From positions 98,604 to 162,603 of the forward strand of contig JBEKON010000001.1 of NCBI GenBank assembly GCA_049521735.1: a DNA stretch of 64,000 bases, given 5' to 3'. Shown one piece after another: positions 671-63,706 of the stretch. Position numbers and translations under genes: made by a program. This DNA comes from Verrucomicrobiota bacterium (GTDB lineage: Bacteria; Verrucomicrobiota; Verrucomicrobiia; Limisphaerales; UBA11358). Under the pieces are notes generated by a model. That model did no database searches and was not told the origin of the DNA. It worked only from the letters and a program-made list of their open reading frames with translations. The first letter of the stretch is position 1, and each line of letters opens with the position of its first letter.

Positions 671-3600
671 TTGCGCGAAAAATGCGGTGTGCAGGTGCGA
701 TTTCTCCTCGGCCCCGCCGGCAGCGGCAAGACGTTCCTTTGCCTGAAGGAAATCCGTGATGCACTGCGCGAAAATCCTGAAGGACCGCCGCTGATTTTGC
801 TGGCGCCCAAACAGACCACGTTTCAACTCGAACGCCAGTTGCTCACCGGCCATTCGCTTGACGGTTACACGCGACTCCACATTTTTTCATTCGAGCGGCT
901 GGCACGATTTGTTTTTGAAAAATCAAACATCGTGCCGCCTGAACCATTGAGTGACGAAGGCCGTGTGATGGTGTTGCGCGCGCTGTTGATGCGGCACGAA
1001 CATAAACTGAAACTTTTTCGCGGGAGCGCGCGCCGCCCCGGCTTCGCGCAGGAACTCGGCGGATTGTTCAATGAATTCCGGCAGCATCAATTGACGCCGC
1101 TCAAACTCCGCGCCCTTGCCCAACGCCCGGGCTTGCGTCCCGAACTTGGGGACAAGCTGCAAGACCTCGCGCTGCTGGACGACGCTTACGCGAAATGGCT
1201 CTCCGAACACGAATTGCAGGACGCGGATTGTTTGCTGGATACGGCGACCGAAGCGCTGCGCTCCGAACTTAAAACTCAAAACTCAAAACTTAAAATTCAA
1301 GGTTTGTGGTTGGACGGTTTTGCCGAAATGACGCCGCAGGAACTCGGTTTGCTCGCCACCATTCTGCCGTTTTGTGAACGCGCAACGCTCGCGTTCTGCC
1401 TCGACGAATCCCGCGCGCGGAAAGCCGAAAGTTCATGGCTCTCACTTTGGTCAGCCGTTGGCAAAACCTATCAACAATGCCGGTCGCGAATTGAAAATCT
1501 GCCCGATTGCACAATCAGCGTTGAAACACTTAAGCGTGTCCCGGACCAAAACCGCTTTACGGGCAGTCCCGCTTTGCAATTTTTGGAGGCAAACTGGTCG
1601 CAACCAACTCAAAACTTAAAACTTAAAATTCAAAACTCAATCCGGCTCGTTGCCTGTCCAAATCCCGAAGTCGAGGCCGTTCTGGCCGCGCGCGAAATTT
1701 TGGAATTCGTCCGCCGCGGCAATCGCTTTCGCGACTGCGCCGTGCTTGTTCGCAGTCTTGACGCCTATCACAAGCCGCTGGAGCGCGCATTTTGCCGTTA
1801 CGGCATCCCGTTTTTCCTGGACCAGCGCAAATCCGTTTCACATCACCCCCTCGGCGAACTGACCCGCAGTGTGGTCCGCACCGTTGCATTTGACTGGCGG
1901 CAGGAGGATTGGTTCGCCGCGCTGAAAGCCGGGTTTTCGCCGGTGGATGAGGCGGAGATTGACCGGTTGGAAAACGAGGCGCTGGCGCGCGGCTGGCGTG
2001 GCGCGAAATGGCGCGAACCCATTCAAATCGCCGACGATCCACAATTGGAAAAATCACTCGAACGGTTGCGCAAAAAAATCCTGCCACCGTTTGAAAATTT
2101 CGCCAAACAGCTTGTGCGGTTGAAAAATGAACCCACCGGCGGGCAATTGGCCGATGCGTTGCGCGAACTTTGGGGCGAACTCGATGTGGAGAAAACCTTG
2201 GAGCGTTGGAGCCTTGTCGAAACGGAACAATCCGCAATCCATTCGACCGTTTGGGATCAAATGAACTTGTGGCTGGAAAATCTGGCGCTTGCATTTCCAC
2301 GCGAGCCATTGCCGCTGCGCGACTGGCTGCCAATTTTGGAGGCGGGACTTTCGAACCTGACCGTTGGGGTGATTCCGCCCGTGCTCGACGAAGTGCTCGT
2401 CGGCGCGATTGACCGCGCGCGCAACCCCGATTTGAAACTGGCGCTCGTGCTCGGCGTGAATGAATCCGTTTTTCCCGCCGCGCCCGCCGCCCCGACGATT
2501 TTGACCGACGCCGACCGCGATGAATTGAATCCTGCGGTTGCGCTTGGCCCGGATTTGCGCGAGCGGCTGGCGCGCGAGCGTTATTATGGCTACATCACCT
2601 GCACCCGCGCGCGGGAAAAACTCGTTGTGACCTTTGCCCGCCTCGACGCCGATGGCAAAACACTGAACCCGTCGTCGCTCGTCGCACATCTGCGACAGAT
2701 GTTCCCTGAACTTGAAATTGAGGAATTCCACACGGACACCGATTTGGGCGAGGTGGAACATGTGAGTGAAATCGCGCCGATGCTGATGGGAGTTCAGGTA
2801 GGGCGGGCTGTCCCCAGCCCGCCGGAGCGGCGCGATGAGGACATCGCGCCCTACCAACAAAATTGGGCGAGGTTGCTGAAAATTCCAGTGCTCGCAACGC
2901 TGCTCGAAAATTTGCGCCAGTTGCGCGAACCGGATTCGGCGGAATGTTTGTCTCCCGCGCTCGCGGAAAAAATTTACGGCGAGACACTGCAAACGTCGGT
3001 CAGCCGGCTCGAGGAATTTGCCCAGTGCCCGTTTCGATTTTTCGTTCATTCCGGCTTGCGCGCCGAGGAGCGAAAAGTTTTCGAGCTGGATGCGCGCGAA
3101 CGCGGCAGTTTTCAGCACGAAGTTTTGAAAAAATTCCACGACGATTTGACGAAAGAGGGCAAACACTGGCGCGACATTGCGCCGTCGGAAGCGCGCGAAC
3201 GCGTTGGTAAAATTGCCGCCGGACTTGCGCAAGATTATCGCGACGGTTTGTTGCGCGCGGATGACCAAAGCCGGTTTGCCGCGCGCATGCTGACGGAGTC
3301 GCTGCAGGATTTTGTCGAGGTGCTCGTCGCGTGGATGCGCGGGCAGTACCAGTTTGATCCGGCGGTGGCTGAACTCGAATTTGGTTTCAACGTCGGCGGT
3401 GCGCCCGCGTGGGAAATCAATCTCGACGACCGGCACAAGCTCGCGTTGCGCGGACGGATTGACCGGGTTGATTTGTGCCGCGAAACCGGCGACAGCGCGT
3501 TATGCGTGGTGATGGATTACAAGTCCGGCGGCAAGAAGCTCGACGCGATTTTGGTCGAGCACGGCGTGCAATTGCAATTGCTCGCGTATTTGAACGCGCT

Positions 3601-4102
3601 GCGGCATTGGCCAAATCCTCAAACGCTGTTGGAAGCGGCCCGGTTGATTCCAGCGGGTGTTTTCCACGTGAATCTGCGCGGCCAATACGAAAGCGGCAGC
3701 ACGCGCGCCGAGGCGCTGGCCGACGCGGATGAATCACGGCGCGTGGCGTATCGTCATACGGGACGTTTTGATGCGAGTTTTCTGGACAAGTTTGACAACC
3801 GTCCGAATGTGCGGTGCGGCGACCAGTTTAATTATAACCGCAACAACGACGGCTCAATGCGCAAAGGCTCGACTGAAGCGCTGTCGCGCCCGGAATTTGG
3901 AGCGTTGCTTGACCGCGTCGAAATGCAATTGCGCAAGATGGGCCGCGCGATTTTTTCCGGCGCGGCGTCCGTTGACCCGTATCGCAAAGGCAGCGAGACG
4001 CCGTGCGGATTTTGCGATTACCGCGCCGTGTGCCGGATTGATCCGTGGACGCACCGTTATCGCGTGCTGCGCGCGGCGAAAGAAAATTCTCCGTCAACAT
4101 GA
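671..4102 (+). CDS. addB: AddB/RexB-type helicase-nuclease subunit (PD-(D/E)XK nuclease with Fe-S cysteines)
   Basis: 1143-aa ORF; N-terminal Walker A GPAGSGKT; C-terminal CPFRF ... CGFCDYRAVC four-Cys pattern typical of AddB. Start uncertain (TTG 671 or GTG 689/695). No addA-like gene adjacent. Confidence 0.75.
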   Translation: MREKCGVQVRFLLGPAGSGKTFLCLKEIRDALRENPEGPPLILLAPKQTTFQLERQLLTGHSLDGYTRLHIFSFERLARFVFEKSNIVPPEPLSDEGRVMVLRALLMRHEHKLKLFRGSARRPGFAQELGGLFNEFRQHQLTPLKLRALAQRPGLRPELGDKLQDLALLDDAYAKWLSEHELQDADCLLDTATEALRSELKTQNSKLKIQGLWLDGFAEMTPQELGLLATILPFCERATLAFCLDESRARKAESSWLSLWSAVGKTYQQCRSRIENLPDCTISVETLKRVPDQNRFTGSPALQFLEANWSQPTQNLKLKIQNSIRLVACPNPEVEAVLAAREILEFVRRGNRFRDCAVLVRSLDAYHKPLERAFCRYGIPFFLDQRKSVSHHPLGELTRSVVRTVAFDWRQEDWFAALKAGFSPVDEAEIDRLENEALARGWRGAKWREPIQIADDPQLEKSLERLRKKILPPFENFAKQLVRLKNEPTGGQLADALRELWGELDVEKTLERWSLVETEQSAIHSTVWDQMNLWLENLALAFPREPLPLRDWLPILEAGLSNLTVGVIPPVLDEVLVGAIDRARNPDLKLALVLGVNESVFPAAPAAPTILTDADRDELNPAVALGPDLRERLARERYYGYITCTRAREKLVVTFARLDADGKTLNPSSLVAHLRQMFPELEIEEFHTDTDLGEVEHVSEIAPMLMGVQVGRAVPSPPERRDEDIAPYQQNWARLLKIPVLATLLENLRQLREPDSAECLSPALAEKIYGETLQTSVSRLEEFAQCPFRFFVHSGLRAEERKVFELDARERGSFQHEVLKKFHDDLTKEGKHWRDIAPSEARERVGKIAAGLAQDYRDGLLRADDQSRFAARMLTESLQDFVEVLVAWMRGQYQFDPAVAELEFGFNVGGAPAWEINLDDRHKLALRGRIDRVDLCRETGDSALCVVMDYKSGGKKLDAILVEHGVQLQLLAYLNALRHWPNPQTLLEAARLIPAGVFHVNLRGQYESGSTRAEALADADESRRVAYRHTGRFDASFLDKFDNRPNVRCGDQFNYNRNNDGSMRKGSTEALSRPEFGALLDRVEMQLRKMGRAIFSGAASVDPYRKGSETPCGFCDYRAVCRIDPWTHRYRVLRAAKENSPST
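1268..1300 (+). repeat. Heptamer tandem array (AAAACTC/AAAACTT/AAAATTC x4-5), in frame inside addB
   Basis: cttaaaactcaaaactcaaaacttaaaattcaa read directly; encodes ...LKTQNSKLKIQ... Confidence 0.9.
1606..1640 (+). repeat. Second AAAACTY heptamer array, same orientation, in frame inside addB
   Basis: caactcaaaacttaaaacttaaaattcaaaactcaa; encodes ...TQNLKLKIQNS... Confidence 0.9.
2797..2855 (+). repeat. GTAGG...CCTAC double-hairpin palindromic element (type 1), in frame inside addB
   Basis: ggtagg-gcgggctg tcccc agcccgcc-ggagc-ggcgcgatg aggac atcgcgcc-ctacc; translated as VGRAVPSPPERRDEDIAPYQ. Confidence 0.9.
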
Positions 4103-4788
4103 CGCTTCGCGGCAAATCCGATCCGGATTGGTCCTCGCTTGTCGAAGAATGGAAGGCCATGCAGTTGCAGTTACGTGAGCGAATGATTGTCACGCCGCTC
4201 GAACCGCTGCCGGGATTTGTCGCCGGGGCGGATTGTGCGTTTTCCGCCGACAAACAAACCATCTTCGCCGCCGCCGTGGTTTATGACCGTGAAACGCAGC
4301 GCATCATCGAAACCGCCCATGCGGTGCGGCCCGCTGAATTTCCCTACATTCCGACTTTTTTAAGCTTTCGCGAAGGGCCGGCGGTTTTGCAGGCAATCCG
4401 TTCGTTGAAGCATGAATTTGGTGCGATTCTTTTCGACGGTCATGGTTTTGCGCATCCGCGTCGCTGCGGCATCGCATCGCATCTGGCGATTGAATTGGAC
4501 AAGCCCGGCGTTGGCGTCGGCAAAAGCCGGTTGATCGGAACGTTTGGAAAACTTTCGCCAAAGGCGGGGGCAACTGTGCCGCTTATGGACGACAACAAAC
4601 AAATCGGCGTTGTGTTACGGACGCAGAAAGGTATTCGTCCAGTTTTTGTGAGCGTCGGCCATCACGTGGATTTGGCATCCGCTGTCAAACTCGTGTTGGC
4701 CTGTTGCACGTGCTATCGCATTCCAGAACCGACGCGGCAGGCGGACATCGAAGTGGCGAAGTTGAAACGGACGAGCGGTGAGATTTAA
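4099..4788 (+). CDS. nfi: Endonuclease V
   Basis: [48 protein letters not shown] motifs; ATG 4099 overlaps the addB stop (ATGA). The ORF-track start at 4045 is probably too early. Confidence 0.85.
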
Positions 4789-6575
4789 TGATACTCCTGC
4801 AACGTCTTGACGCTGTAGCCGGATTTTTTGAGTGCGGCGATGCCGAGGGCGGCGGCTTTCGCGCCGCTTAGCGTCGTCATGATGGGCGTGCCGGTGTAAA
4901 TCGCTGTCGTGCGGATTTTGACTTCGTCTTCTCGCGGCACCGCGCCGCTCGGCGTGTTGATGACGAGCTGGATTTCCTTGTTCTTGAGCAAATCAATCAC
5001 ATTTGGACGGCCTTCGAGCAATTTAACGATGCGCTCGACTTTCAAGCCCGCCTTTTCCAGCACACCGGCCGTGCCGACTGTCGCCACAAACTCGAATTCC
5101 AAATCGGCAAATTGTTTCGCCACCGCCGCAACATGTTTTTTGTGCGCGTCACTCACGCTGATGAAAACTTTTCCGCTCAACGGCAGCGACGCGCCCGCCG
5201 CTATTTGCGATTTGGCGTAGGCGATGCCCAGGTCGGCATCCAGACCCATGACTTCGCCGGTCGAGCGCATTTCCGGCGAGAGCAAAATATCCTGCCCATG
5301 AAAACGGTTGAACGGGAAAACGGATTCCTTCACCGCCCAATACTTCGGTTTGATTTCCTTGGTGAAACCGAGTTCTTTCAAGGTTTTTCCGGCCATGACT
5401 CTCGCCGCGAGCTTGGCCAGCGGCACGCCAATGGCCTTGCTCACAAACGGCACGGTGCGCGACGCACGCGGGTTCACTTCGAGCACGAAAACCTTTTCGT
5501 CCTTCACGGCGTATTGGACGTTCATCAAGCCGATCACTTCCAATTCGCGCGCCATCGCGTGAGTGTAATCGCGAATTGTCTCGATGACTTTTTTGGAAAG
5601 TGTGTGCGGCGGCAAAACCATCGCTGCATCGCCGGAATGAATACCGGCGAATTCGATGTGCTCCAATATTCCTCCGATGACAATTGTGCCGTCGCCCGGT
5701 TTTTTGGAATGGCCGACGTCGGCGATGCAATCCACGTCCACTTCGGTCGCATCTTCCAAAAACCGGTCCACGAGCACCGGACGTTCGGGCGATGCCTCGA
5801 CCGCGAAACGCATGTAATGCTGCAATTCGGCGTCGGAATAGACAATTTGCATCGCGCGACCGCCGAGCACGAAACTTGGCCGGACCAAAATCGGGTAGCC
5901 AAGCTTTTGGGCGACTTCGAGCGCCTCCGTTTCGTTCGTGGCAACACCGTTGGGCGGCTGCGGAATTTTCAGTTTGTCGAGCATCGCGGCGAAGAATTTG
6001 CGGTCTTCGGCGATTTCGATGTTCTGTGGTGAAGTGCCGATGATGTTGACGCCATTTTTCTGGAGGCCGAGCGCAAGGTTCAGCGGGGTTTGCCCGCCGA
6101 ATTGCGCGATGGCGCCCCAGCATTGCTCGCGTTCGTAAATGTGCAGCACGTCTTCGAGCGTGAGCGGTTCGAAGAAAAGCTGGTCGCTTGTGTCGTAATC
6201 GGTCGAAACGGTTTCGGGATTCGAGTTGACCATGATGGTTTCGAAACCGTCCTCCTTGAGTGCGAACGCGGCGTGCACGCAGCAGTAATCAAACTCAATT
6301 CCCTGCCCGATGCGGTTCGGTCCGCCGCCGAGAATCATCACTTTTTTCTTCGGCGTCCTTTTGATTTCGTCATCGCCGCGATCATAAGTCGAATAATAAT
6401 AAGGCGTGTAAGCCTCAAACTCGGCGGCGCAGGTGTCCACGAGTCGATAGCTGGGCACAAGGCCGAGTTTTTTCCGTAGCGCGCGGACTTCGTCCTCAGT
6501 TTGGCCGGTTAAATGGGCGATTTGCCGGTCGGAAAATCCCAAACCTTTCGCTTTGCTCAAAGTGTCATGTGTCAT
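4785..6575 (-). CDS. carB: Carbamoyl-phosphate synthase large subunit, C-terminal half only (split carB)
   Basis: 596 aa. From memory it aligns with E. coli CarB from about residue 470 onward: [57 protein letters not shown], second ATP-grasp, MGS-like tail. No N-terminal half in this window. Confidence 0.85.
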
Positions 6576-6590
6576 GTGCCATGTGCCACG
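6562..6590. repeat. Left arm of long hairpin (GTGTCAT/GTGCCAT heptamers x4) enclosing the four-helix-bundle gene
   Basis: gtgtcatgtgtcatgtgccatgtgccacg. Hand pairing with 6978-7006 gives 22 Watson-Crick + 3 G-T of 29 positions. Contains the carB-C start codon and the four-helix-bundle ORF stop. Confidence 0.8.
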
Positions 6591-6967
6591 TTTGCGCTTT
6601 GGGCGCGCCGTGTCAGGGAACGTTTGAAACCGCCGATGAGGGCTTTGGTTTTGGCTGCTTGTGTATGATGTTCCCGAAACACAGGTTCATTAATATAGCC
6701 ATTGTCGAGCGCCACATAAAGCAGAGACTGAACTTCAACAGCTGAACGTCTGGCGATTCCTAAAAAACGGGCGAATTCGACCTTTGATTCACAATCGAAA
6801 CCTTCGGCAATGTTGGCCATGGTTGAAACCGCTGCGCGTTGAATTTGATCCTTCAATCCAAAATCCCGCGCCAAACCACCATCACCAGTCAAATGATAAA
6901 CACCACGCGTCAATTTCCGCGCTTCCTGCCATGCTTGAATATCTTCAAATTTGCTGATTAAAGGCAT
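6572..6967 (-). CDS. Four-helix-bundle protein (23S rRNA intervening-sequence protein family)
   Basis: [19 protein letters not shown]...[18 protein letters not shown]...[23 protein letters not shown] matches my memory of this family; start taken at the internal ATG 6967. Confidence 0.8.
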
Positions 6968-6977
6968 GGTGATAAAA

Positions 6978-7007
6978 CCTGATACGTGACACTTGATACA
7001 TGACACG
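6978..7007. repeat. Right arm of the hairpin enclosing the four-helix-bundle gene
   Basis: cctgatacgtgacacttgatacatgacacg, imperfect reverse complement of 6562-6590. Confidence 0.8.
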
Positions 7008-7097
7008 AAAGAGTAAGCCGGAAAAATCTGCGCGTGTCGAGCGGGGAGTGTTCAAATCCGCTTGCCGACCGCACAGGTTTGCGTTACGAAACGGCGG

Positions 7098-8306
7098 ATG
7101 AAAAGATTCGGGTGCGCGTTTTTTTGGCTGTCGTTTTTCGTCCCGATGCTCGCCAATGCGCAAATTGATCCCATCAAGCGCGATTTGGTTCAGTTCGGCT
7201 ACAATCAAGCGCTCGAAGGCCACGCGCCATTTGCCGGATACGCGTTTTATTATCACAACCAGCCGGATTTTCTGCGCACGAACCTCACCTTGCGTCTGGC
7301 GCTCGCGCCGGTTTATCTCGATTCGGAGCTGGGCTTCGTTGGCGGACTGGGACCGAACACGGATTTCGCCATCGGCGTGGCTGGCGGCGGTTTTGGGGAC
7401 AGTTATTCGGAGATTCGCGGCGGCACGTACTATCCCGGCGAATCGTTTGACGGCAACGGCGGGGAAATTTCCGCGAGCGTTTATCATCTGTTCAATCCCG
7501 GCGACGAAATCCCGCTGAACTTTGTTTTGCGCGGCACGGCGCATTATTCTTTTTACGGTCGCAACGGAGACACGTCACCGGCGTTTCAACTGCCCGGCGA
7601 CCACGGCGATTTCAGCGTGCGCACCGGACTGCGCTGGGGCGGCGTCGAACCGACGTTGTTTCCGCCACTCGCGATGGAGTTGTCCGTTTGGTATGAGGGT
7701 TATTTTCGCAGCCATTCCGGCACGTATGGTTTCAACGGCGACCGCGAGCTCAAGGAACAATCGCATTTGTTTTGGGCGGAAGCGGCGCTGGCGTACACGC
7801 TGCCCAAAAGCCAGCAAAGTTTTTACGTCCGCCTGACCGCCGGCACGAGCGTGGACGCCGACCGTTTCAGCGCGTATCGGCTCGGCGGATTTCTGCCGCT
7901 CATCGCGGAATTTCCGCTATCGCTGCCCGGCTACTATTTTCAGGAAATCAGCGCGCGACAATTTGCGCTGCTCAATGCGAATTACCTTTTGCCGCTCGAC
8001 GGGGAAAAACGCTGGAACATTGACGTGAACGCATCCAGCGCGTTTGTGGATTATCTGCCCGGCGAATCGCAGCCCGGCAACTGGCTCAACAGCGTAGGCG
8101 GCGGCATTTTGTATCATTCACCGTCCGACCGCTGGAAAATCATGCTCGATTACGCTCACGGCATTGACGCCATTCGTTCTCATGGACGCGGCGCGAACAG
8201 CATCGGTTTGCTCGTGCAATTCGATCTCGGCGCCAAGCCCAGCCGGAGCTTCAATTCCACGCAACCATCGCAGTGGCGCGGATGGCAGCGGATTTTCGGC
8301 GATTGA
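7098..8306 (+). CDS. Secreted hypothetical protein, probably an outer-membrane beta-barrel
   Basis: Signal peptide MKRFGCAFFWLSFFVPMLANAQ; Gly/aromatic-rich alternating composition; no family recognised. Confidence 0.5.
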   Translation: MKRFGCAFFWLSFFVPMLANAQIDPIKRDLVQFGYNQALEGHAPFAGYAFYYHNQPDFLRTNLTLRLALAPVYLDSELGFVGGLGPNTDFAIGVAGGGFGDSYSEIRGGTYYPGESFDGNGGEISASVYHLFNPGDEIPLNFVLRGTAHYSFYGRNGDTSPAFQLPGDHGDFSVRTGLRWGGVEPTLFPPLAMELSVWYEGYFRSHSGTYGFNGDRELKEQSHLFWAEAALAYTLPKSQQSFYVRLTAGTSVDADRFSAYRLGGFLPLIAEFPLSLPGYYFQEISARQFALLNANYLLPLDGEKRWNIDVNASSAFVDYLPGESQPGNWLNSVGGGILYHSPSDRWKIMLDYAHGIDAIRSHGRGANSIGLLVQFDLGAKPSRSFNSTQPSQWRGWQRIFGD

Positions 8307-9618: not shown

Positions 9619-9626
9619 CAGGTGTA

Positions 9627-9655
9627 GTTTCAAGTTTCAGGTTTCAAGTTTCAAG
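9627..9655. repeat. Intergenic heptamer array (GTTTCAA/GTTTCAG x4)
   Basis: gtttcaagtttcaggtttcaagtttcaag between the ribE start and the ribD stop. Confidence 0.9.
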
Positions 9656-9693: not shown

Positions 9694-10896
9694 TTAATCA
9701 ACACGTGCCGTCAGCAACAAATCCGGTCCGAGCCGCCTCCACTCGACGTTGCGAAGCCGGAGCGCCTCCGCCAGACTTTTCGCGCCGCCACCCGCGACCG
9801 CTTTGCGTGAGTCGCGTCCGCCCAGAATTTTTGGCGCGTAAAAAAACGCGATGCGATGTGCAAAACCGCCGAGCAGAAACGATGCGTTCACTTCGCCGCC
9901 GCCTTCGACCAGCAGGCTGGTAATATTTTGTGAGCCGAGTTTTTGCAACAGCCAACGCAGGTCAATTTGTTGGTAGGGCACGGTCTCCGCACCGTGCCGC
10001 GGCGCGCTGGGGACAGCGCGCCCTACCTTGATTATGGGCGCGACAAGAACATTCACGCGCCCGGCCAAAGCCGCGACGCGACTTTTCGGCGCGGATTTGC
10101 TCACGACAATCGTCGTCAGCGCCGCAAATTTGTCAGTTACAACTTTTGCCTTCAACGGTGTTCGTGCCATCGAATCCAAAATAATCCGGCGGAGCCGCAA
10201 ATTTTTGTTCTGACTTCTGACTCCTGACTTCTGCCTTCTGAATGTCAGGCTTGGGTTGTCCGCTAGAATCGTGTTGATGCCGACGAGAATCGCGTCGTTG
10301 CCTTGACGCAATTTCATGCCGTGCGCCCGAGCCTGCTTGCCGGTAATCCATTTCGACTCGCCACTCGCCGTGGCGATTTTCCCATCGAGCGTCATTGCCG
10401 CCTTCACGGTCACGAACGGCGTGCGGTGAACAATCCAATGGTTGAATGGTTCATTAAGCCGCTCACATTCATCGGCGAGTCTGGTAGGGACGGCTCGCCG
10501 AGCCGTCCGGTCATCACGGCGCAATAACCCTACCTCTGTTACTGCAATCCCGGCACGTTTCAAAATCCTGAAAGCACGACCGGCATGTTTCGGATTTGGA
10601 TCCGTCGCGCCGACAACCACGCGTTTGATTCCCGCCGCGATGATGGCGTCCGTGCAAGGTGGCGTGCGGCTGTGTGAGCTGCACGGTTCGAGCGTCACGT
10701 AAAGCGTTGCGCCGCGCGGCGAGTGCCCGCGTTTCTGCGCATCGCGGAGCGCTTCGATTTCCGCGTGCGGCAGACCCGCACGCCGGTGCCAGCCGCGCCC
10801 GATGATTTTTCCGCCTTTCGCCAATACCGCGCCGACCATCGGATTGGGCGAAGTCATGCCGTAGCCGCGTTGCGCCAAACTCAAAGCCAGGCGCAT
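9694..10896 (-). CDS. ribD: Bifunctional riboflavin biosynthesis deaminase/reductase RibD, carrying three in-frame repeat insertions
   Basis: MRLALSLAQRGYGMTSPNPMVGAVL, HAEIEAL, LEPC..H..TPPC deaminase motifs plus reductase domain. Start moved to ATG 10896 to clear the ftsY stop. Confidence 0.9.
   Translation of the reverse strand: MRLALSLAQRGYGMTSPNPMVGAVLAKGGKIIGRGWHRRAGLPHAEIEALRDAQKRGHSPRGATLYVTLEPCSSHSRTPPCTDAIIAAGIKRVVVGATDPNPKHAGRAFRILKRAGIAVTEVGLLRRDDRTARRAVPTRLADECERLNEPFNHWIVHRTPFVTVKAAMTLDGKIATASGESKWITGKQARAHGMKLRQGNDAILVGINTILADNPSLTFRRQKSGVRSQNKNLRLRRIILDSMARTPLKAKVVTDKFAALTTIVVSKSAPKSRVAALAGRVNVLVAPIIKVGRAVPSAPRHGAETVPYQQIDLRWLLQKLGSQNITSLLVEGGGEVNASFLLGGFAHRIAFFYAPKILGGRDSRKAVAGGGAKSLAEALRLRNVEWRRLGPDLLLTARVD
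9972..10027 (-). repeat. Type-1 GTAGG...CCTAC double-hairpin element, in frame inside ribD
   Basis: Gene-strand reading ggtagg-gcgcgctg tcccc agcgcgc-...-ggcacggtg cggag accgtgcc-ctacc = VGRAVPSAPRHGAETVPYQ. Confidence 0.9.
10210..10249 (-). repeat. Heptamer array (CTGACTT/CTGACTC/CTGCCTT x5) in frame inside ribD
   Basis: ctgacttctgactcctgacttctgccttctgaatgtcagg; encodes RRQKSGVRSQNKN on the gene strand. Confidence 0.9.
10483..10534 (-). repeat. GTAGG...CCTAC palindromic element (variant) in frame inside ribD
   Basis: ggtagggacggctcgccgagccgtccggtcatcacggcgcaataaccctacc; gene strand reads VGLLRRDDRTARRAVPT. Confidence 0.85.
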
Positions 10897-13236: not shown

Positions 13237-13417
13237 AAACTTAAGTTTAACAGTATGACCTGTCCAAAGTCCATCCGCCTTCGCAAGGCTACGGCGAGAT
13301 TAAAAGTCTAAAGCTCGCCTCGGCGGAGCCTTCAGCGAAGCCTGGGTCCAAAGTCAAACAATGCGACGCAACTTTGGACATTGGACATCGAACATTGGAC
13401 TTGTTAAAACTTCGCGC

Positions 13418-13801: not shown

Positions 13802-13813
13802 GCGCCGTTGCAA

Positions 13814-13845
13814 CTTAAAACTCAAAATTCATAATTCAAAATTAA
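13814..13845 (+). repeat. Intergenic AAAACTC-type heptamer array, same family as 1268 and 1606
   Basis: cttaaaactcaaaattcataattcaaaattaa. Confidence 0.85.
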
Positions 13846-20072: not shown

Positions 20073-20164
20073 AGTGTCACGTATCACGTATCATGTGTCA
20101 CGCAGCCGAATGCCAAATACCCGACGGACGACACTTGGCACATGACACACGACACCTGACACTT
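20073..20164. repeat. 'Empty' heptamer-arm hairpin of the same family as 6562/6978
   Basis: agtgtcacgtatcacgtatcatgtgtcacg - 27-nt loop - gacacttggcacatgacacacgacacctgacact. Arms share gtgtcacgtatca and tggcacatgacac strings with the carB-adjacent cassette. Confidence 0.85.
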
Positions 20165-37827: not shown

Positions 37828-37887
37828 GGTAGGGCGGGCTGTCCCCAGCCCGCCGCCAACGGCGCGATGAGGACATCGCGCCCTACC
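37828..37887 (+). repeat. Type-1 GTAGG...CCTAC double-hairpin element immediately upstream of the recG ATG
   Basis: ggtagggcgggctgtccccagcccgccgccaacggcgcgatgaggacatcgcgccctacc. Near-identical to 2797-2855 but 1 nt longer, which gives TGA in the recG frame. Confidence 0.9.
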
Positions 37888-37891
37888 TTCC

Positions 37892-39949
37892 ATGCGTCCA
37901 CAAATCCAAGACAATCCGCTGGCTGCACCCGTAACGACATTGTGGGGTGTCGGCGCGGAACGCGCGGCGCAACTCGCACGCCTCGACATTCACACCATCG
38001 AGGATTTGTTGCTGCACCGGCCGCGGCGTTATGAAGATCGCCGTCATTTTCGCAGTATTGCCGGGTTGACCCGTGACGAAGCGGCGACCACGCGCGGCAC
38101 GATTGTCACGCTCGGCCTCAGACGTTTTCGCGGCGGCAACAAATCCGTTTTTGAAATCATTCTCGATGATGGCAGCGCCCGGTTGCATTGCCGCTGGTGG
38201 AATCTGCCGTTCATGCAAAATTATTTTGCGGTTGGCGACGAGATTTTCGTTTACGGCAAGCTCAATGAAACCAAGCCGCGCATCATTGACCATCCTGAAA
38301 CCGAAGTCATCGAGGGCGGCGAGGAGAGCTTCATCCACATCAACCGCATCGCGCCGGTGTATCCGCTCACCGAAGGCCTGCCGCAACGCTGGTTGCGCGG
38401 GCTGATCTGGCGGACGTTGGAAAAATTCGAGCGGCACATCGCCGAACCGTGGCCGGGAAATGTAGGACAGGTGTCCCGCCTGTCTCCATCTTCAAGTTCT
38501 AAAAATCAGGGACAGGCTGGAAGCCTGTCCTACCCGACGCGCGCCAACGCCATTCACATGACGCATTTCCCCGAAGAGCTGGCCGATGTGGAAATCGCAC
38601 GGCGACGGCTGGCGTTGGATGAATTCATTGCGTTGCAGCGTGACATGCAGCTTCGCCGGAAAAATTTCGAGGCCAAATCGCGCGCATTACCGTGCGGTGG
38701 TGACAATCGTTTGATGAAGCCGTTTCTGGCACGGCTCGGCTTCAAGCTCACCGACGCCCAGACGAAAGTCCTCCGCGAAATCCGGGCGGACATGAGCGGG
38801 GCGCATCCGATGCGGCGGCTGCTGCAAGGCGACGTCGGTTCAGGCAAGACGGTGGTTGCCGCCTGCGCGGCGCTCATGGCTTTGGAAAGCGGGTTCAATG
38901 TTGCGCTCATGGCGCCGACGGAAATCCTTGCGGAACAACATTTCAACAATTTTTCGCGCTGGTTTGGACCGCTCGGCGTGAAGGTGAAATTGCAAACAGG
39001 TTCACACAGGAGTAAGGAACAAGAAGTAAGGCGCAAGACCCTCGCAGCAAAACCCTTACTCCTTACTCCTTGCTCCTTGACCATCGGCACTCACGCCCTC
39101 ATCGAGTCGGGATTTGTATTGGAGAAATTGGGTTTGGTCATTATTGACGAGCAGCACAAGTTTGGCGTGGCACAGCGCGAACAGATCGTGCGTAAAGGCC
39201 GCTATCCGCATTTGCTCGTGATGACGGCTACCCCGATTCCGCGCACGCTCGGCCTTACGCTTTACGGCGACCTTGATATTTCGGTAATTGACCAGATGCC
39301 CGGTGGACGCGGCAGGATAAAAACTTTTCTACGCACGACCGAAAAATTGCCTGAAGTTTGGAAATTCATCCGCGAAAAACTGGCTGCCGGACGGCAGGCA
39401 TACGTCGTTTATCCGCGCGTGGAGGATTCAGGACCAAATGGGTTGAAAGCGGTGAAAAAGGAATTTGAAAATTTGAAGAAGCTGCTCGCGCCATTCCATG
39501 TCGGGTTGATGCACGGCCGGTTGAAAGGGCGGGAGAAGGACGAAGTAATGACAGCGTTTCGCGCGAACCAAATTCAGGCGCTCGTCGCGACGACGCTGGT
39601 TGAAGTGGGTTTGGATGTGCCGAACGCAACGATCATGCTGGTTGAAAATGCGGAGCGGTTCGGTCTGGCGCAATTGCATCAATTACGCGGGCGCATCGGG
39701 CGCGGCGCGCATGAGTCGCACTGCATTTTGATTTCCGACGCGAAGAATGAGGATGCAGGGCGGCGCTTGAAAGTTTTGGAAGAGACGACGGACGGGTTTC
39801 GCATTGCCGAGGTGGATTTGAAATTGCGCGGGCCGGGCGAATTGCTCGGCCAGCGGCAAAGCGGCCTGCCGAAATTCCGCTTCGGCAATCTGGCCGGGGA
39901 TTTGGATTTGATCCGGTTTGCGCGCGAGTTGGCGGCGCAAATAATTTAG
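37892..39949 (+). CDS. recG: ATP-dependent DNA helicase RecG, carrying two in-frame repeat segments
   Basis: LLLHRPRRYEDR wedge-domain start, GDVGSGKTVVA, DEQHKFGV, MTATPIPRTL, HGRLK..EK, QLHQLRGRIGRG. Confidence 0.9.
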   Translation: MRPQIQDNPLAAPVTTLWGVGAERAAQLARLDIHTIEDLLLHRPRRYEDRRHFRSIAGLTRDEAATTRGTIVTLGLRRFRGGNKSVFEIILDDGSARLHCRWWNLPFMQNYFAVGDEIFVYGKLNETKPRIIDHPETEVIEGGEESFIHINRIAPVYPLTEGLPQRWLRGLIWRTLEKFERHIAEPWPGNVGQVSRLSPSSSSKNQGQAGSLSYPTRANAIHMTHFPEELADVEIARRRLALDEFIALQRDMQLRRKNFEAKSRALPCGGDNRLMKPFLARLGFKLTDAQTKVLREIRADMSGAHPMRRLLQGDVGSGKTVVAACAALMALESGFNVALMAPTEILAEQHFNNFSRWFGPLGVKVKLQTGSHRSKEQEVRRKTLAAKPLLLTPCSLTIGTHALIESGFVLEKLGLVIIDEQHKFGVAQREQIVRKGRYPHLLVMTATPIPRTLGLTLYGDLDISVIDQMPGGRGRIKTFLRTTEKLPEVWKFIREKLAAGRQAYVVYPRVEDSGPNGLKAVKKEFENLKKLLAPFHVGLMHGRLKGREKDEVMTAFRANQIQALVATTLVEVGLDVPNATIMLVENAERFGLAQLHQLRGRIGRGAHESHCILISDAKNEDAGRRLKVLEETTDGFRIAEVDLKLRGPGELLGQRQSGLPKFRFGNLAGDLDLIRFARELAAQII
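38462..38533 (+). repeat. Type-2 GTAGGACAGG...CCTGTCCTAC element (72 nt) in frame inside recG
   Basis: gtaggacaggtgtcccgcctgtctccatct...cagggacaggctggaagcctgtcctac = VGQVSRLSPSSSSKNQGQAGSLSY. Confidence 0.9.
39009..39076 (+). repeat. Heptamer-arm hairpin (GTAAGGA/ACAAGAA vs CCTTACT x2) in frame inside recG
   Basis: ggagtaaggaacaagaagtaaggcgcaag - loop - cccttactccttactccttgctcc; encodes RSKEQEVRRKTLAAKPLLLTPCS. Confidence 0.85.
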
Positions 39950-52927: not shown

Positions 52928-53000
52928 ATAGGACAGGCTTCCAGCTTGTCTCCATCTCAAAGCGGGAAAAAGTCATGGACGGGCAAGATGCCTGTCCTAC
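52928..53000 (+). repeat. Type-2 (A/G)TAGGACAGG...CCTGTCCTAC element between convergent fabF and pyrF
   Basis: ataggacaggcttccagcttgtctccatct...ggacgggcaagatgcctgtcctac; its right terminus supplies the pyrF stop codon. Confidence 0.9.
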
Positions 53001-53701
53001 TTTAAAGACTCCAAAATCTTCTCCGCTGCTTCCCGCGGATTTTCCGCCGCATAAATCGGCCGGCCAATCACCAGCCAGTTTGCCCCGGCGGCAATGGCTT
53101 CCCGCGGCGTCAGCGTGCGCTTTTGGTCGTCGGCTTTTTCTGTGCCAGTGCGAACACCGGGTGTGATGAGTTGAATGCCGGCAGTCAACATTTGACGCAG
53201 CTCGGCCACTTCCAACGGCGAGCAAATAAGACCGCGCAGGCCGGCTTTGGTGGCCATGTTCGCGAGCCGGCGCACCTGGCTGGCGACATTCGGGTCAAGG
53301 CCGATTTCGCTTAACGACTGGCTGGTGAGGCTTGTGAGCACGGTCACGCCCAGCACCAACGGCGCATTGTGACCGGTTTGTTTCGCGGTTTTTTGCGCCG
53401 ATTCCTCCGCCGCGCGCATCATGTCCACTCCGCCGCTGACATGCACGGTGAGCATTTGCACGTCCAATCGCACGGCCGAGGCAACGGCTCTGGCGACGGT
53501 GTTCGGGATGTCGTGGAATTTTAAATCAAGAAAAACCGCGGCCCCCGTCGCGCGAATCCGCCGGACAATATCCGGCCCGGCGCTGGTGAACAATTCGCTG
53601 CCAATCTTGAACGCGCCGACCACCGGCGCGATTTTCTTGGCCAACTCCAGCGCGGCTTCGGCGGTTGGCACATCGAGCGCGGCGATGATGGGATTACGCA
53701 T
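52997..53701 (-). CDS. pyrF: Orotidine 5'-phosphate decarboxylase
   Basis: IIAALDV, FLDLKFHDIPNTV, PGVR. Confidence 0.9.
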   Translation of the reverse strand: MRNPIIAALDVPTAEAALELAKKIAPVVGAFKIGSELFTSAGPDIVRRIRATGAAVFLDLKFHDIPNTVARAVASAVRLDVQMLTVHVSGGVDMMRAAEESAQKTAKQTGHNAPLVLGVTVLTSLTSQSLSEIGLDPNVASQVRRLANMATKAGLRGLICSPLEVAELRQMLTAGIQLITPGVRTGTEKADDQKRTLTPREAIAAGANWLVIGRPIYAAENPREAAEKILESLK

Positions 53702-55204: not shown

Positions 55205-56352
55205 AAAGTCCTAAACTTTTGGTTCGTCCGCTCGTGCGCGAGTTGTACCCCTACGTTTATGGCGAGCAGCCAAAGATCAAAGGGTTGATCAAGCTCAACA
55301 CGAACGAAAATCCGTATCCGCCGTCGCCGAAGGTGCTGGCGGCGGTCAGAGCGGCGGTGGACGGGCGGTTACGGAAGTATCCAAACCCGACGGCACAGAC
55401 GCTGCGCGAAAAGCTGGCGAAGTTGCACGGTTGTCACGCGGACAACATCATCGTGGGCAACGGCTCGGACGAATTGCTGGCATTGGCCACGCGGTGCTTT
55501 GTGGAGCCAAGCGTAGGACAGGCTTCCAGCCTGTCTCCATCTGCAAAGAAAAAGTCAGAGACAGGCAAGATGCCTGTCCTACGTTGCAACATCATCCAAT
55601 ACTTCACACCAAGTTATTCGCTCTACCCAGTGCTCGCGGATATTCACGGTGCGGCGAAGAATCCCGTGTCACTCAAGCCTGATTTTAGCCTGCCGAGTGT
55701 GGCGGAATTGAAGCATGGAAGGGTGTGGAGATTTAACGCCGCACTGACTTATGTGACGACACCGAACGCACCCAGCGGTCGCGGTTATTCGATAAAGGAA
55801 TTGGAATCGCTTTGCCGGGCGCAACGCGGTGTGGTGGTGCTGGATGAGGCTTATGTGGATTTCGCGGAGGAAAACGCGATGAAACTGGCGTTGAAATATC
55901 CGCATGTGCTCGTCGCGCGGACATTCTCGAAGGCGTATTCGCTCTGCTTCCAGCGTGTCGGTTATTTTGTCGGGCATCGCGACCTCATCGCGGCGCTGCA
56001 CAAAATTCGCGACAGTTACAATGTCAACGGCCTCGGCCAGATCGCCGCAGTGGCAACGCTGGGTGATTTGCCGTATTACCGCGCGAATTTCCGGAGAATT
56101 ATCGCCACGCGTGAGTGGTTGAGCCGCGAATTGACGAAGCTCGGTTTCCGTGTTTTTCCGAGTCAGGCGAATTTTATTCTCGTCCAGCCGTCATTGTTTT
56201 CCGCGAAAGACTGGCTGGAAAAACTTCGAGACCGGAAAATTCTGGTCCGCTGGTTTAATTTCCACGAGGTAAAAAAATATCTGCGCATCACAATTGGCAA
56301 TCCCTCGGAAGTGGAAGCATTGGTGCAAGCGGCGCGGAAGATTTTGTTGTAG
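55201..56352 (+). CDS. hisC: Histidinol-phosphate aminotransferase, carrying an in-frame repeat insertion
   Basis: LNTNENPYPPSP, GNGSDELL, FSKAYSL; ATGA overlap with hisD. Confidence 0.9.
   Translation: MKSPKLLVRPLVRELYPYVYGEQPKIKGLIKLNTNENPYPPSPKVLAAVRAAVDGRLRKYPNPTAQTLREKLAKLHGCHADNIIVGNGSDELLALATRCFVEPSVGQASSLSPSAKKKSETGKMPVLRCNIIQYFTPSYSLYPVLADIHGAAKNPVSLKPDFSLPSVAELKHGRVWRFNAALTYVTTPNAPSGRGYSIKELESLCRAQRGVVVLDEAYVDFAEENAMKLALKYPHVLVARTFSKAYSLCFQRVGYFVGHRDLIAALHKIRDSYNVNGLGQIAAVATLGDLPYYRANFRRIIATREWLSRELTKLGFRVFPSQANFILVQPSLFSAKDWLEKLRDRKILVRWFNFHEVKKYLRITIGNPSEVEALVQAARKILL
55513..55582 (+). repeat. Type-2 GTAGGACAGG...CCTGTCCTAC element in frame inside hisC
   Basis: gtaggacaggcttccagcctgtctccatctgcaaagaaaaagtcagagacaggcaagatgcctgtcctac = VGQASSLSPSAKKKSETGKMPVL. 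Confidence 0.9.
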
Positions 56353-61684: not shown

Positions 61685-63706
61685 TCAATCATTTTTCGCC
61701 GGCGCGTTGATGGACTGAAATGATTCCCGCCATGGTTGGTGGTTTCTGTAAAGTTGCAGTCGCCGTCGCATATCTGCAACGCTTTGGCTCATGCCTTTAG
61801 CGGCTGCGAGTTCGACAGCTTTTTGGGTCACTTCCTGAGCGTCATCGAAATGGCCGGCTTCCGCGCAGGCCATGCCTAGCGCGTCGAGCACGAACGGCAG
61901 TGTGCTATCGCTCAAAACGTTCGCTTTGACTGCGAACACCAGCGCGGTCTTCCCGTCGCGAATTTGAGGATTTTCATCGGCGGCCAGCACCTGGGCGGTG
62001 TAGGCGAGGATTTGAAAATTGTCCGGGTCAATCCGCAATGCTTCGCGCAGCCGGCCAACCGCCTCGGCATCACGGCCCTGTTTGAGCAGCGCCTTGCCCA
62101 TTTGAAAATACGGCCAGGGATAGGCCGGATCGAGCCGCGCGGCGTTGGTAAATTCATTCATGGCCTCGTCGAAACGCCCAAGTTCGACCAGCACGATGCC
62201 AAGCCCGTCGTGCAAGGCCGGCGGCTTCGGATCCAGCCGCACAGCTTCGCGGTATTCGGACAGCGCCTCCCCCGGTCGGCCAAGGTTGTCGAGCAGATTG
62301 CCGAGATTGTTGTGAATCTGGTAACGCCCCGGCATGAGGCGCGCCGCTTCACGATATTCCGCCAGCGCCCGGGTCAATTTGCCCTGTTGTTCGAGCGCGA
62401 CGCCGAGGTTGAAGTGAGCGATGCCGTTGTCTTTCGTCACGGCGAGCGCGTGTGTGAACAGCGATTCGCTATCGTGCCAAAAGCGCAATTGATTTTCGGT
62501 GAGAATCACACACGCTGTGAGAATTGCGGCGGCCGCGAACGTGATGACAATTTTCGGAATTTGAAATCGGTCTGCCAAATCACGGACGCCGAAGGCAACG
62601 GCCAGGAACACGCCGATGGAGGGAATGTAGGTGTAACGGTCGGCCAGCGCCGCGCCGCCGACCTGGATCAGGCCGATGACCGGCACCAGCGTCCCCAAAA
62701 ACCAAAGCCAGCCGACGAGCAGATACGGACGCGTGCGTCGTGTCTTCCAAACACAGCAGGAAACCACAATTAAAAATACGGTCGCCGCGAAGAATTGTGT
62801 CCGAAGCAAGGGTGTGATCGGATACAGGACCACCAGGTTTGCCGGCCAAAGCATTTTCAGAAAATAGTCCAGGTAGGATGTCACGGCGTTGGCGAGCCGA
62901 TAACGCAAAGGAACCAGTTCCAGTGGGATAATGGCGCCACCACCATGCTGTGCGAAAACGGTTACGATGCAGGAAACCGCGGCAAGCAGAAAAAACGGCC
63001 ACTTTTCCAAAGCGAGAAGGATGAAGGATGAAGAATGAAAGTTGAAAGCCGGAATTGGCGGCGCCGCGCTGTTTTCGGGATTTGAAATTGGAAATTGGGA
63101 ATTGGAAATTCGCCGGAGCGGCCAGAAATCGAGCAACAACATCACGAATGGCAGCGTGACAAGCATGGGTTTCGCCATGAGGCCGAGCGCGAAGAAAATC
63201 AAGGCGAACCAAAAGCTGCGGCGGCAGTTTTCCTTTGCGTATTTCGTGTAGCTTAAAAGCGCGAGCAGGGCGAAGAACGTACTCAGGACGTCCTTGCGTT
63301 CCGAAATCCACGCAACAGATTCGACGTGCAGCGGATGCCACGTGAACAACGCGGCAACGCATGCGCTAGGCCACAATGCATTCGTCAGTCGGAACAGCAG
63401 CACCAAAAGCAAAACCGCATTGGCTACGTGAAACAGAACGTTGACGGAATGATGTGCGCCAGCATTGAGGCCGAAAAGTTCGCAGTCCGTCATATGGGAG
63501 AGCCAAGTGACGGGATGCCAGTTACTGGCATGTTGCGTGGTGTAAGCCCATTTGATTCCCGTCCACGTCAAACCTTTTTGGACGACATGATTTTTCGTAA
63601 CGTAATCGTCGTCGTCATAGACCAGGAAGCCGTAATGGCATACGGGCAGATAAACCAGCAGCGTGATAAGTGCGAGCAACAGGCCAATGAGGCGCGGGCG
63701 GGACAT
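61685..63706 (-). CDS. Membrane protein with PMT/ArnT-like N-terminal multi-TM domain and C-terminal TPR repeats; carries an in-frame repeat insertion
   Basis: N-terminus YDDDDYV..N, about 10 TM segments, then TPR units (AEYREAARLMPG..., EYREAVRLDP...). Confidence 0.7.
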   Translation of the reverse strand: MSRPRLIGLLLALITLLVYLPVCHYGFLVYDDDDYVTKNHVVQKGLTWTGIKWAYTTQHASNWHPVTWLSHMTDCELFGLNAGAHHSVNVLFHVANAVLLLVLLFRLTNALWPSACVAALFTWHPLHVESVAWISERKDVLSTFFALLALLSYTKYAKENCRRSFWFALIFFALGLMAKPMLVTLPFVMLLLDFWPLRRISNSQFPISNPENSAAPPIPAFNFHSSSFILLALEKWPFFLLAAVSCIVTVFAQHGGGAIIPLELVPLRYRLANAVTSYLDYFLKMLWPANLVVLYPITPLLRTQFFAATVFLIVVSCCVWKTRRTRPYLLVGWLWFLGTLVPVIGLIQVGGAALADRYTYIPSIGVFLAVAFGVRDLADRFQIPKIVITFAAAAILTACVILTENQLRFWHDSESLFTHALAVTKDNGIAHFNLGVALEQQGKLTRALAEYREAARLMPGRYQIHNNLGNLLDNLGRPGEALSEYREAVRLDPKPPALHDGLGIVLVELGRFDEAMNEFTNAARLDPAYPWPYFQMGKALLKQGRDAEAVGRLREALRIDPDNFQILAYTAQVLAADENPQIRDGKTALVFAVKANVLSDSTLPFVLDALGMACAEAGHFDDAQEVTQKAVELAAAKGMSQSVADMRRRLQLYRNHQPWRESFQSINAPAKND
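63018..63112 (-). repeat. Two adjacent heptamer arrays flanking a GC palindrome, in frame in the PMT/TPR gene
   Basis: aaggatgaaggatgaagaatgaaagttgaaag ... ggcggcgccgc ... ggatttgaaattggaaattgggaattggaaattcg; encodes ISNSQFPISNPENSAAPPIPAFNFHSSSFIL. Confidence 0.85.

Follow-up and report, generated by a model that had tools for sequence, protein, structure and literature searches.

The DNA analyzed here, a 64,000-nucleotide stretch of contig JBEKON010000001.1 from a Verrucomicrobiota bacterium of the order Limisphaerales (hereafter the window), carries a gene for AddB, the B subunit of a helicase-nuclease, in which two arrays of heptanucleotide repeats, arrays 1 and 2, are translated in frame (Table 1). 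The product of the open reading frame (ORF) 689-4102 matches the Pfam families ADDB_N (PF21445, 3.6e-63) and PDDEXK_1 (PF12705, 4.9e-35), aligns end to end with B. subtilis AddB (3U44_B, E=2.8e-160), and is 100% identical to P0001, a protein of a Verrucomicrobiota metagenome-assembled genome. The translation features a Walker A motif (GPAGSGKT) and a cysteine cluster (QCPFRFF and PCGFCDYRAVC) which flanks the nuclease domain. The four cysteines expected of an iron-sulfur site are all present, and C780, C1106, C1109 and C1115 are invariant in the alignment of AddB orthologues. On these sequence grounds the ORF is identified as AddB, made up by a predicted N-terminal helicase-like domain with Walker A and a predicted C-terminal PD-(D/E)XK nuclease.

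Repeats in the window were called by Tandem Repeats Finder (TRF), and the pattern AAAAYTY, iterated three times, was searched on both strands. Arrays 1 and 2 have a period of 7 nt and 5.0 copies each, well over the minimum of three, with consensus AACTCAA and 85% matches, and lie 340 nt apart, start to start. The AAAAYTY pattern was found at three places only in the window, all on the + strand, corresponding to arrays 1 and 2 and to an array in the spacer between the glyoxalase and pfkB-kinase genes. No match was found in 100 dinucleotide-preserving shuffles, and no reverse-complement copy resides in the window, arrays 1 and 2 being direct repeats and not palindromes. Array 1 is translated in frame as ...RSELKTQNSKLKIQGLWLDGF... 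(also given as RSELKTQNSKLKIQG) and codes for residues E193-Q204 (ELKTQNSKLKIQ), directly ahead of the LWLDGFAE strand; array 2 is translated in frame as ...WSQPTQNLKLKIQNSIRLVAC... (also given as QPTQNLKLKIQNSI) and codes for about P306-I318 (PTQNLKLKIQNSI). A first-pass annotation of this DNA had reported two same-orientation AAAACTY arrays in frame in addB, about 340 bp apart, plus a third related array in an intergenic spacer. TRF, pattern search and translation agree with it on both points.

Short repeats are prone to mis-assembly in metagenome bins, and the support for the arrays at the assembly level had been raised as a question. Both arrays are reproduced base for base in an independent JGI metagenome contig, L082, which is 97.9% identical over 4771 nt, and the same peptides are encoded by other assemblies within the same 90% protein clusters. 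Dozens of genomes from different studies also feature arrays at these codon positions, without exception in frame. The arrays are genuine, and the probability that they are artefacts of assembly or sequencing is negligible.

Table 1. Location of addB, of its repeat hot spots and of other heptanucleotide arrays in the window
Feature	Position	Strand	Details
addB gene (helicase-nuclease subunit B), array host	689..4102	+	GTG start at 689, 1137-aa product; alternative TTG at 671
Array 1 (hot spot 1)	1266..1300	+	AACTTAA AACTCAA AACTCAA AACTTAA AATTCAA; TRF and translation
Array 2 (hot spot 2)	1606..1640	+	AACTCAA AACTTAA AACTTAA AATTCAA AACTCAA; TRF
Hot spot 3, two-unit remnant	2228..2241	+	CAATCCG CAATCCA; alignment; near residues 500-600, arrays here in many orthologues
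Hot spot 4, 59-nt hairpin element instead of array	2797..2855	+	Near residues 700-800; arrays of relatives at ORF nt ~2100-2400
Inverted pair of GTGTCAY-family arrays	6562..7006 (6562-6588, 6980-7006)	-	TRF; flank the PF05635 gene
ribE upstream array	9626..9655	-	Sense GAAACTT x4; ends 7 nt before riboflavin synthase ATG (MFTGIVE)
ribD in-frame array	10208..10241	-	Sense GTCAGAA; TRF
Glyoxalase upstream array	13374..13400	+	TTGGACA x4; 18 nt before glyoxalase ATG
Intergenic AAAACTC/AAAATTC array	13812..13843	+	TRF; between glyoxalase and pfkB-kinase genes, ends 8 nt before ATG 13852
Inverted pair of GTGTCAY-family arrays	20077..20162 (20077/20130)	.	27 nt apart, between two + strand genes
recG in-frame array	39054..39078	+	CCTTACT; TRF
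TPR/PMT_2 protein gene, two in-frame arrays	63016..63110	-	Sense ATCCTTC and TTCCAAT; TRF

Tandem repeats were monitored in the window and in 1.49 Mb of DNA surrounding the AddB orthologues of 80 species-level genomes, labelled Limisphaerales or Verrucomicrobia subdivision 3. A period of 7 is featured by 12 of the 15 window arrays with at least three copies, all other periods together accounting for 3, and by 147 of 211 arrays in the related loci; second-order Markov shuffles yield ~0 arrays. As sampled by these 64 kb plus 1.49 Mb of DNA, the excess of period-7 repeats is lineage-wide. The usual copy number is 3.5-5 per array, and 19 of 159 arrays have an inverted partner within 500 nt. Much longer arrays are hosted by two loci, with ~22 copies in L040:16029-16184 (TTCATCC/TTCATAC) and ~30 in L058:7112-7318 (CAACATC/CAATATC).

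The sequence of the units varies widely. More than 40 canonical forms were counted among 159 arrays, and array pairs within one mismatch amount to 13.6% within genomes vs. 7.9% between genomes, a 1.7-fold difference. One or few dominant units per genome, as described for published families, were not observed, and the period of 7 nt, not the sequence of the unit, is what the lineage conserves. A single heptamer specific to each genome would point to a factor binding that sequence; this hypothesis was rejected, and the diversity and weak genome specificity of the units argue against such a factor. Arrays number 0.365 per kb in AddB, whereas the DNA flanking it in these loci holds 0.031 per kb; the enrichment is 11.8-fold (p=6e-40). 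About 7 of the 12 window arrays reside inside ORFs, a distribution which does not match the mainly intergenic one of published families.

The evolution of the AddB arrays was followed in 120 AddB proteins (64-100% identity; P labels) and in the 80 DNA loci (L labels). Arrays recur at four fixed hot spots, the first two, sites 1 and 2, being hypervariable whatever the lineage. In most orthologues, repetitive or not, site 1 measures 45 nt. In about 45 relatives it is made up by 4-5 heptamers, the unit being set by lineage (AACTCAA, AATTCAA, AATTCCG, GATTCCG, AACTCCG, CACTCCG, AAATCCG, AATCCGC, CCTTCAA, CGCTCGA, and others), and a single register, NNYTCNN, is shared. In 26 orthologous 45-nt arrays, the distance per 7 nt is 1.0 among units inside one array, 3.1 among units found at the same position in different genomes, and 1.6 among genomes for the flanking coding sequence. 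Site-1 arrays undergo concerted evolution at constant length. In distant orthologues (e.g. L054, L056, L063-L080) site 1 is a non-repetitive loop, mostly 33-45 nt long, in which the C-terminal ...[LF]-[KR]-I-x-G is kept. In the 3U44_B alignment loops are found in B. subtilis AddB at the two sites; the site-1 loop is shorter by 6 aa, and site 2 aligns with no gap.

Site 2 may host arrays of AAAACTC, GAATCCA, CGCAATC, CGAACTC, CAGCAAC, GAAGTCA and other units, but often holds hairpin elements instead (peptides of the GVPPAKTRADETSALHS, GFQPDSDRQDACPT and RLKAELQT types). In the 92%-identical L011 the site is occupied by a CGCAATC array 15 nt longer, and in L001 by a hairpin element. Of the 120 orthologues, 16 carry a peptide of the AAAACTC type at site 1 and 19 carry one at site 2, down to 68% identity, a result indicating that the unit is old, and not newly acquired in this genome. 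An identical unit is present at both sites in 4 of 17 genomes vs. 2.3 expected (p=0.16); sharing the unit is no general rule, and the pair is not a functional unit. The possibility that arrays 1 and 2 form a coupled pair, for instance a cassette bounded by direct repeats, was rejected on this count and because the intervening DNA is conserved AddB sequence.

At hot spot 3, two units are found in the window and in L082, five in L011, the difference being exactly 21 nt (3 units, 7 codons) within flanks ~92% identical. The changes in copy number at this site, and the changes in unit sequence seen in ribD and at 13374, are variations between close relatives consistent with slippage. In the window, hot spot 4 is taken by a REPIN-like double-hairpin element of 59 nt, GGTAGGGCGGGCTGTCCCCAGCCCGCCG...CGGCGCGATGAGGACATCGCGCCCTACC, which is read in frame as part of AddB (GRAVPSPPERRDEDIAPY). 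A 100% identical copy is located at the 5' edge of recG (37828-37887), a diverged one inside ribD (9972-10027), and the identity of the former suggests recent mobility. A palindromic, hairpin-forming structure is featured by this element, and by neither array 1 nor array 2.

Hairpin elements were found at site 2 in L001, L002, L003 and other loci. A second hairpin family, TAGGACAGGCTTCCAGCCTGTC...GACAGGCAAGATGCCTGTCCTAC, is represented three times in the window (38463-38536, 52929-53003, 55514-55585); in relatives, L001 and L053 among them, it occupies site 2 of AddB (peptide GFQPDSDRQDACPT). A related insert of ~69 nt, CGCCTYCGCCTCCGGCTYCGGCGCGGCAAGCC...GACGGGCG, interrupts arrays in frame in L013 (10580-10690) and L024 (2040-2150), one of them belonging to AddB site 1 and the other to site 2. 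Arrays are also broken by shorter inserts (24-32 nt) in L001, as well as in P0006 and P0011 (peptides PPLRRDGC and PPPRRDGC). Small dispersed repeats are reportedly nested in the heptamer repeats of Nostoc, and the array inserts, both the 69-nt and the 24-32-nt ones, are reminiscent of those described in cyanobacterial heptamer arrays.

In the first-pass annotation the arrays had been regarded as acquired, rather than ancestral, coding DNA. They might indeed be mobile DNA, copies of a dispersed microsatellite-like element inserted in addB and in intergenic DNA, as suggested by the occurrence of the AAAAYTY unit family at three window loci, by the completely different sequences found at site 2 and in the 13812 spacer in 85-92%-identical relatives, and by the capacity of AddB hot spots to host mobile hairpin elements, such as the one at hot spot 4, and the 69-nt insert interrupting arrays in L013 and L024. 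Yet the constant 45-nt length of site 1 in most orthologues and the loops of B. subtilis AddB leave no contrast between filled and empty sites: presence/absence polymorphism was not observed, site 1 being constant in length and site 2 showing replacement. Moreover, units make up a graded series of single substitutions in one register, as in-situ evolution predicts, the sharing of AAAACTC-type peptides down to 68% identity speaks against insertion, and units are too diverse, and too little alike within a genome, for a family of copies. An origin of the arrays as mobile DNA is unlikely.

The initial claim survives in part. That the arrays arose by a process acting at the DNA level, rather than by selection on the protein, is supported by a period of 7 nt which spans all three frames, by similar arrays between genes, and by the hypervariability of both sites. 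A lineage-specific foreign insertion is instead not borne out by the length of site 1, by the B. subtilis loops and by the sharing of the peptides down to 68% identity. The evidence which the annotation had named as decisive against acquisition, namely distant orthologues in which non-repetitive DNA codes for homologous peptides, is partly at hand, in the form of non-repetitive loops of similar length keeping the ...[LF]-[KR]-I-x-G residues. As judged from the sequences compared, the best-supported view is that the arrays represent ancestral linkers which have been rewritten, not insertions.

AddB is encoded in a single frame in 79 of the 80 loci. The only frame change (L068:10312-10317) maps near residue 137, away from any array, and could be due to a pseudogene or to a sequencing error. 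Metagenome contigs sharing the site-1 flanks show the same 48-nt gap in 5 cases out of 5, all in frame. Alleles in which a change in the number of repeats switches the frame were found neither among the 80 loci nor among the 5 metagenome contigs, all of them consensus assemblies in which minority variants might not show, and 5 contigs being a small sample for copy numbers at the population level.

These data bear on the hypothesis that the arrays make AddB a contingency locus, gain or loss of one unit switching the protein on or off to exert a reversible control on DNA end processing, recombination or degradation of foreign DNA. The length of the unit, not divisible by 3, the presence of up to four arrays per gene and the 12-fold enrichment in AddB would suit such a switch, and constant length with homogenised units would be expected if, under selection for the ON state, units were lost and regained over and over. 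However, no OFF allele was detected and the lone frameshift lies elsewhere, the arrays are unchanged in the 2%-diverged strain and in the cluster members, and the sole difference in copy number observed corresponds to 3 units. In addition, ribD, recG and the TPR gene, which host similar arrays, are not typical contingency genes, and five units make a short tract. A role of the arrays as ON/OFF switches is highly improbable.

The composition of the arrays is strand-biased. Of 92 AddB arrays, 85 have more C than G in the sense strand, as do 36 of the 43 arrays located in other genes, and the G content of in-ORF arrays is 13-14%, vs. 28.6% predicted by stop avoidance alone. In the genetic code A/C-rich codons specify polar residues, G/T-rich codons hydrophobic ones. 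Seen against the code, the paucity of G in the sense strand would be the signature of a filter operating at the peptide level, and selection for polar residues would fix the orientation of the arrays, the A+C-rich strand being the sense one.

The location of the arrays in the protein was assessed by AlphaFold2 (AF2) in a model of residues 1-440 based on 88 sequences, with a predicted local distance difference test (pLDDT) score of 72.8. A full-length model obtained from a 14-sequence alignment scored 41, and was set aside for the N-terminal one. Array 2 is predicted to fall in a coil (residues 304-325; pLDDT <50 at 306-316), array 1 to span the end of a helix (181-196), a coil (197-202), and the start of the Walker-B strand (203-210). 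The first-pass annotation had asked whether the peptides lie in surface loops; both the model, in which array 2 resides in a low-confidence coil and array 1 at a helix end plus coil, and the B. subtilis loops at the two places argue that they do. According to the model, the arrays would sit in sequence-tolerant surface linkers, with array 2 between the helicase-like domains.

Other window arrays occur in three settings, being placed in frame in genes, directly upstream of start codons, or in inverted pairs which may form hairpins. Many vary among relatives. The ribD array reads TTCTGAC on the + strand of the window and TTTGGAC in L011, the same two adjacent positions being changed in every unit. 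The array upstream of ribE is present in L011, and missing in L001. At the glyoxalase gene the unit is altered in L011, and the array is interrupted by a 24-nt insert in L001. The array between the glyoxalase and pfkB-kinase genes is absent in L011, here 90-94% identical. The pair at 20077-20162 is a potential long hairpin with arms made up by heptamer repeats, as judged from its sequence.

The inverted pair at 6562-7006 flanks a gene coding for a PF05635 protein, a four-helix bundle similar to the proteins encoded by 23S rRNA intervening sequences (IVS), with the upstream array lying 7-18 nt from its start. The whole segment (~450 nt) is missing in L012 and L065, in which the spacer measures 31 nt, and is replaced in L011 and L001 by 168 nt in which different heptamer arrays make up an inverted pair. 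The TGA of the PF05635 gene overlaps the ATG of carB-C (ATGA) inside an array, and carB-C thus starts within the array. The carB-C gene is a free-standing gene (4785-6575) coding only for the C-terminal half of the large subunit of carbamoyl-phosphate synthase (second ATP-grasp and MGS domain). Its start point is identical in relatives (MPPLNSELL...). The idea that the PF05635 gene had inserted into carB and split it was consequently rejected, the site being an intergenic spacer. A tRNA-like 3' end suspected near 7010-7100 was supported by neither ARAGORN nor Rfam, tRNA-Leu being the sole Rfam match in the whole window at gathering thresholds. Downstream of addB lies an endonuclease V gene (4045-4788), and no AddA-like ORF of at least 600 aa was found within the 64-kb window. 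The usual addAB operon arrangement is therefore not present here, and the AddA gene may be located elsewhere in the genome.

The placement of several arrays prompts a further explanation, namely that they function at the RNA level as unstructured, A+C-rich and G-poor tracts affecting translation, possibly as ribosomal protein S1-type enhancers upstream of starts and as pause sites at domain boundaries in ORFs. Arrays end 7-18 nt before the ribE, pfkB, glyoxalase and PF05635 starts, the start of carB-C lies inside one, and no Shine-Dalgarno motif is visible by eye at these sites. Arrays inside ORFs contain little G on the mRNA strand and sit at domain junctions, and the TAACTGA repeats of Beggiatoaceae, which are similarly placed, have been proposed to play a translational role (PMC4679880). 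The extreme diversity of the units is at odds with this explanation. Furthermore, intergenic arrays of the window lack a consistent strand composition, so that the shortage of G is a feature of coding arrays only, for which the polarity of the peptides accounts, and upstream arrays are missing in close relatives without other changes (L001 at ribE, L011 at pfkB). As a general account of the arrays, an RNA-level function is improbable. Considered for the sole arrays located upstream of starts, such a role is plausible from their placement; for the coding arrays it is unneeded.

Taken together, the period-7 excess, the positional conservation, the concerted evolution, the 21-nt indel, the strand bias and the loop location make it probable that the AddB arrays are slippage-prone heptanucleotide repeats belonging to a lineage-wide class, which are tolerated in surface linkers and filtered for frame, stop-free reading and polar peptides. 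According to this explanation, 7-nt tandem repeats would be formed and homogenised at a high rate in the lineage, with polymerase slippage as the likely engine. Replication slippage, or conversion within the array, would rewrite the arrays, so that units stay alike while their sequence drifts. Arrays would persist wherever tolerated, in spacers, 5' leaders, and protein linkers alike. Within genes, survivors would be those which keep the frame (by net changes of 3 units, i.e. 21 nt, or by none), feature no stop in three frames, and code for polar residues. The encoded peptides may be polar spacers, devoid of a function of their own.

Some data fit the slippage explanation less easily. Homogenisation at constant length is not the simplest outcome of slippage, and requires either conversion-like events, or paired losses and gains passing through out-of-frame intermediates. 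The 11.8-fold density in AddB exceeds what simple tolerance obviously predicts. Near-perfect arrays in orthologues only 60-70% identical imply that homogenisation is fast and continuing. Finally, the many intergenic arrays located 7-18 nt upstream of starts hint at an RNA-level role, at least for that subclass. Instead of being passive passengers, the arrays might be the product of an active process which, in Limisphaerales-type Verrucomicrobia, homogenises or writes DNA in a 7-nt register at particular sites, with AddB as prime target, or they might be selected in AddB as a mutational engine, producing hypervariable surface loops in an arms race with anti-AddAB factors, or a low-frequency reversible frameshift switching of DNA end processing. 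Either way, this appears quite unlikely.

Arrays might also be kept because they diversify the surface loops of AddB, allowing for example escape from phage inhibitors of AddAB/RecBCD. Besides being enriched 12-fold in AddB, divergence in array segments runs at about twice the rate of their flanks, and whole segments are replaced between close relatives. On the other hand, a contact of inhibitors with the loops has no supporting evidence, ribD and non-coding spacers turn over alike, and the identity of the arrays in strains 2% apart indicates that turnover is not fast at the population scale. Adaptive hypervariability is accordingly rated as very unlikely, and tolerated, slippage-prone repeats remain the favoured explanation.

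The over-representation of heptanucleotide repeats, long known, is poorly understood, and the repeats have been treated as an intergenic curiosity; here they are found inside conserved housekeeping proteins. Dozens of orthologous arrays make up a natural series in which concerted evolution, a frame-preserving 3-unit indel, stop avoidance in three frames and selection of the orientation coding for polar peptides can be followed, and the AddB arrays are a clean system for the dynamics of slippage and conversion under the constraint of the reading frame. Caution is needed in annotation and alignment, as odd low-complexity peptides of this kind, found in proteins of Verrucomicrobia, represent translated repeats, and not domains. 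Were the enrichment in AddB functional, a repeat-generating process would be linked to the control or the diversification of an enzyme central to DNA repair and anti-phage defence.

Repetitive DNA translated within conserved proteins is not without parallel. Rickettsia palindromic elements, and other small hairpin elements, are reportedly inserted in frame in protein genes, and, as in the AddB arrays, repetitive DNA of non-coding type is translated into an extra surface peptide of a conserved protein. Arrays 1 and 2, unlike these elements, are direct repeats with no inverted partner, and evolve in situ rather than by copy-and-paste. Intragenic repeats with a unit not multiple of three are also found at phase-variable simple sequence repeat contingency loci, known in Haemophilus, Neisseria and Campylobacter. 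These differ from the AddB arrays, in which no ON/OFF polymorphism was observed, tracts are short, and the genes which host them have housekeeping roles in bacteria living free in soil and peat.

The closest relatives are other heptanucleotide repeats. Heptanucleotides are credited with being the most abundant class of long simple sequence repeats in many bacteria, and a slippage model based on a polymerase footprint of ~7 nt has been proposed (Mrazek 2007, as reported in PMC4679880 and PMC4692102). Known families include the STRR of heterocystous cyanobacteria (Calothrix/Nostoc), GGGAATC in Xanthomonas, and GGGGA(T/C)T in Nostoc (Rehm 2015, PMC4692102). Arrays described here resemble STRR and GGGAATC repeats in the 7-nt tandem units, the period-7 excess, the typical number of ~4 units, the occurrence of some inverted pairs and the variation in length and sequence between close relatives; a slippage origin, suggested here, has been proposed for the published repeats as well. 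STRR and GGGAATC families are mainly intergenic, reported as under-represented in coding regions, and made up by one or few dominant units, which in Xanthomonas and Nostoc are G-rich and quadruplex-forming. In contrast, dozens of unrelated units are found here, no G tracts occur in AddB arrays, and many arrays, translated in frame, occupy fixed sites in conserved proteins; they are concentrated in AddB, and evolve in concert at constant length.

TAACTGA direct repeats, found in Beggiatoaceae, Cyanobacteria and Bacteroidetes, consist of 2-6 heptamers located a few nt upstream of starts, and are occasionally found inside ORFs, in the stop-free orientation and mostly at protein termini (MacGregor 2015, PMC4679880). 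Window arrays similarly occur both near start codons and inside ORFs. TAACTGA repeats differ in being iterations of a single conserved heptamer, featuring stops in all three frames one way, and their in-ORF cases are few, peripheral, and not described as positionally conserved internal linkers. A literature search retrieved no description of heptanucleotide repeats in Verrucomicrobia. Heptanucleotide repeats are known as such; what is new in the arrays described here is that they are coding, fixed in position, and enriched in AddB.

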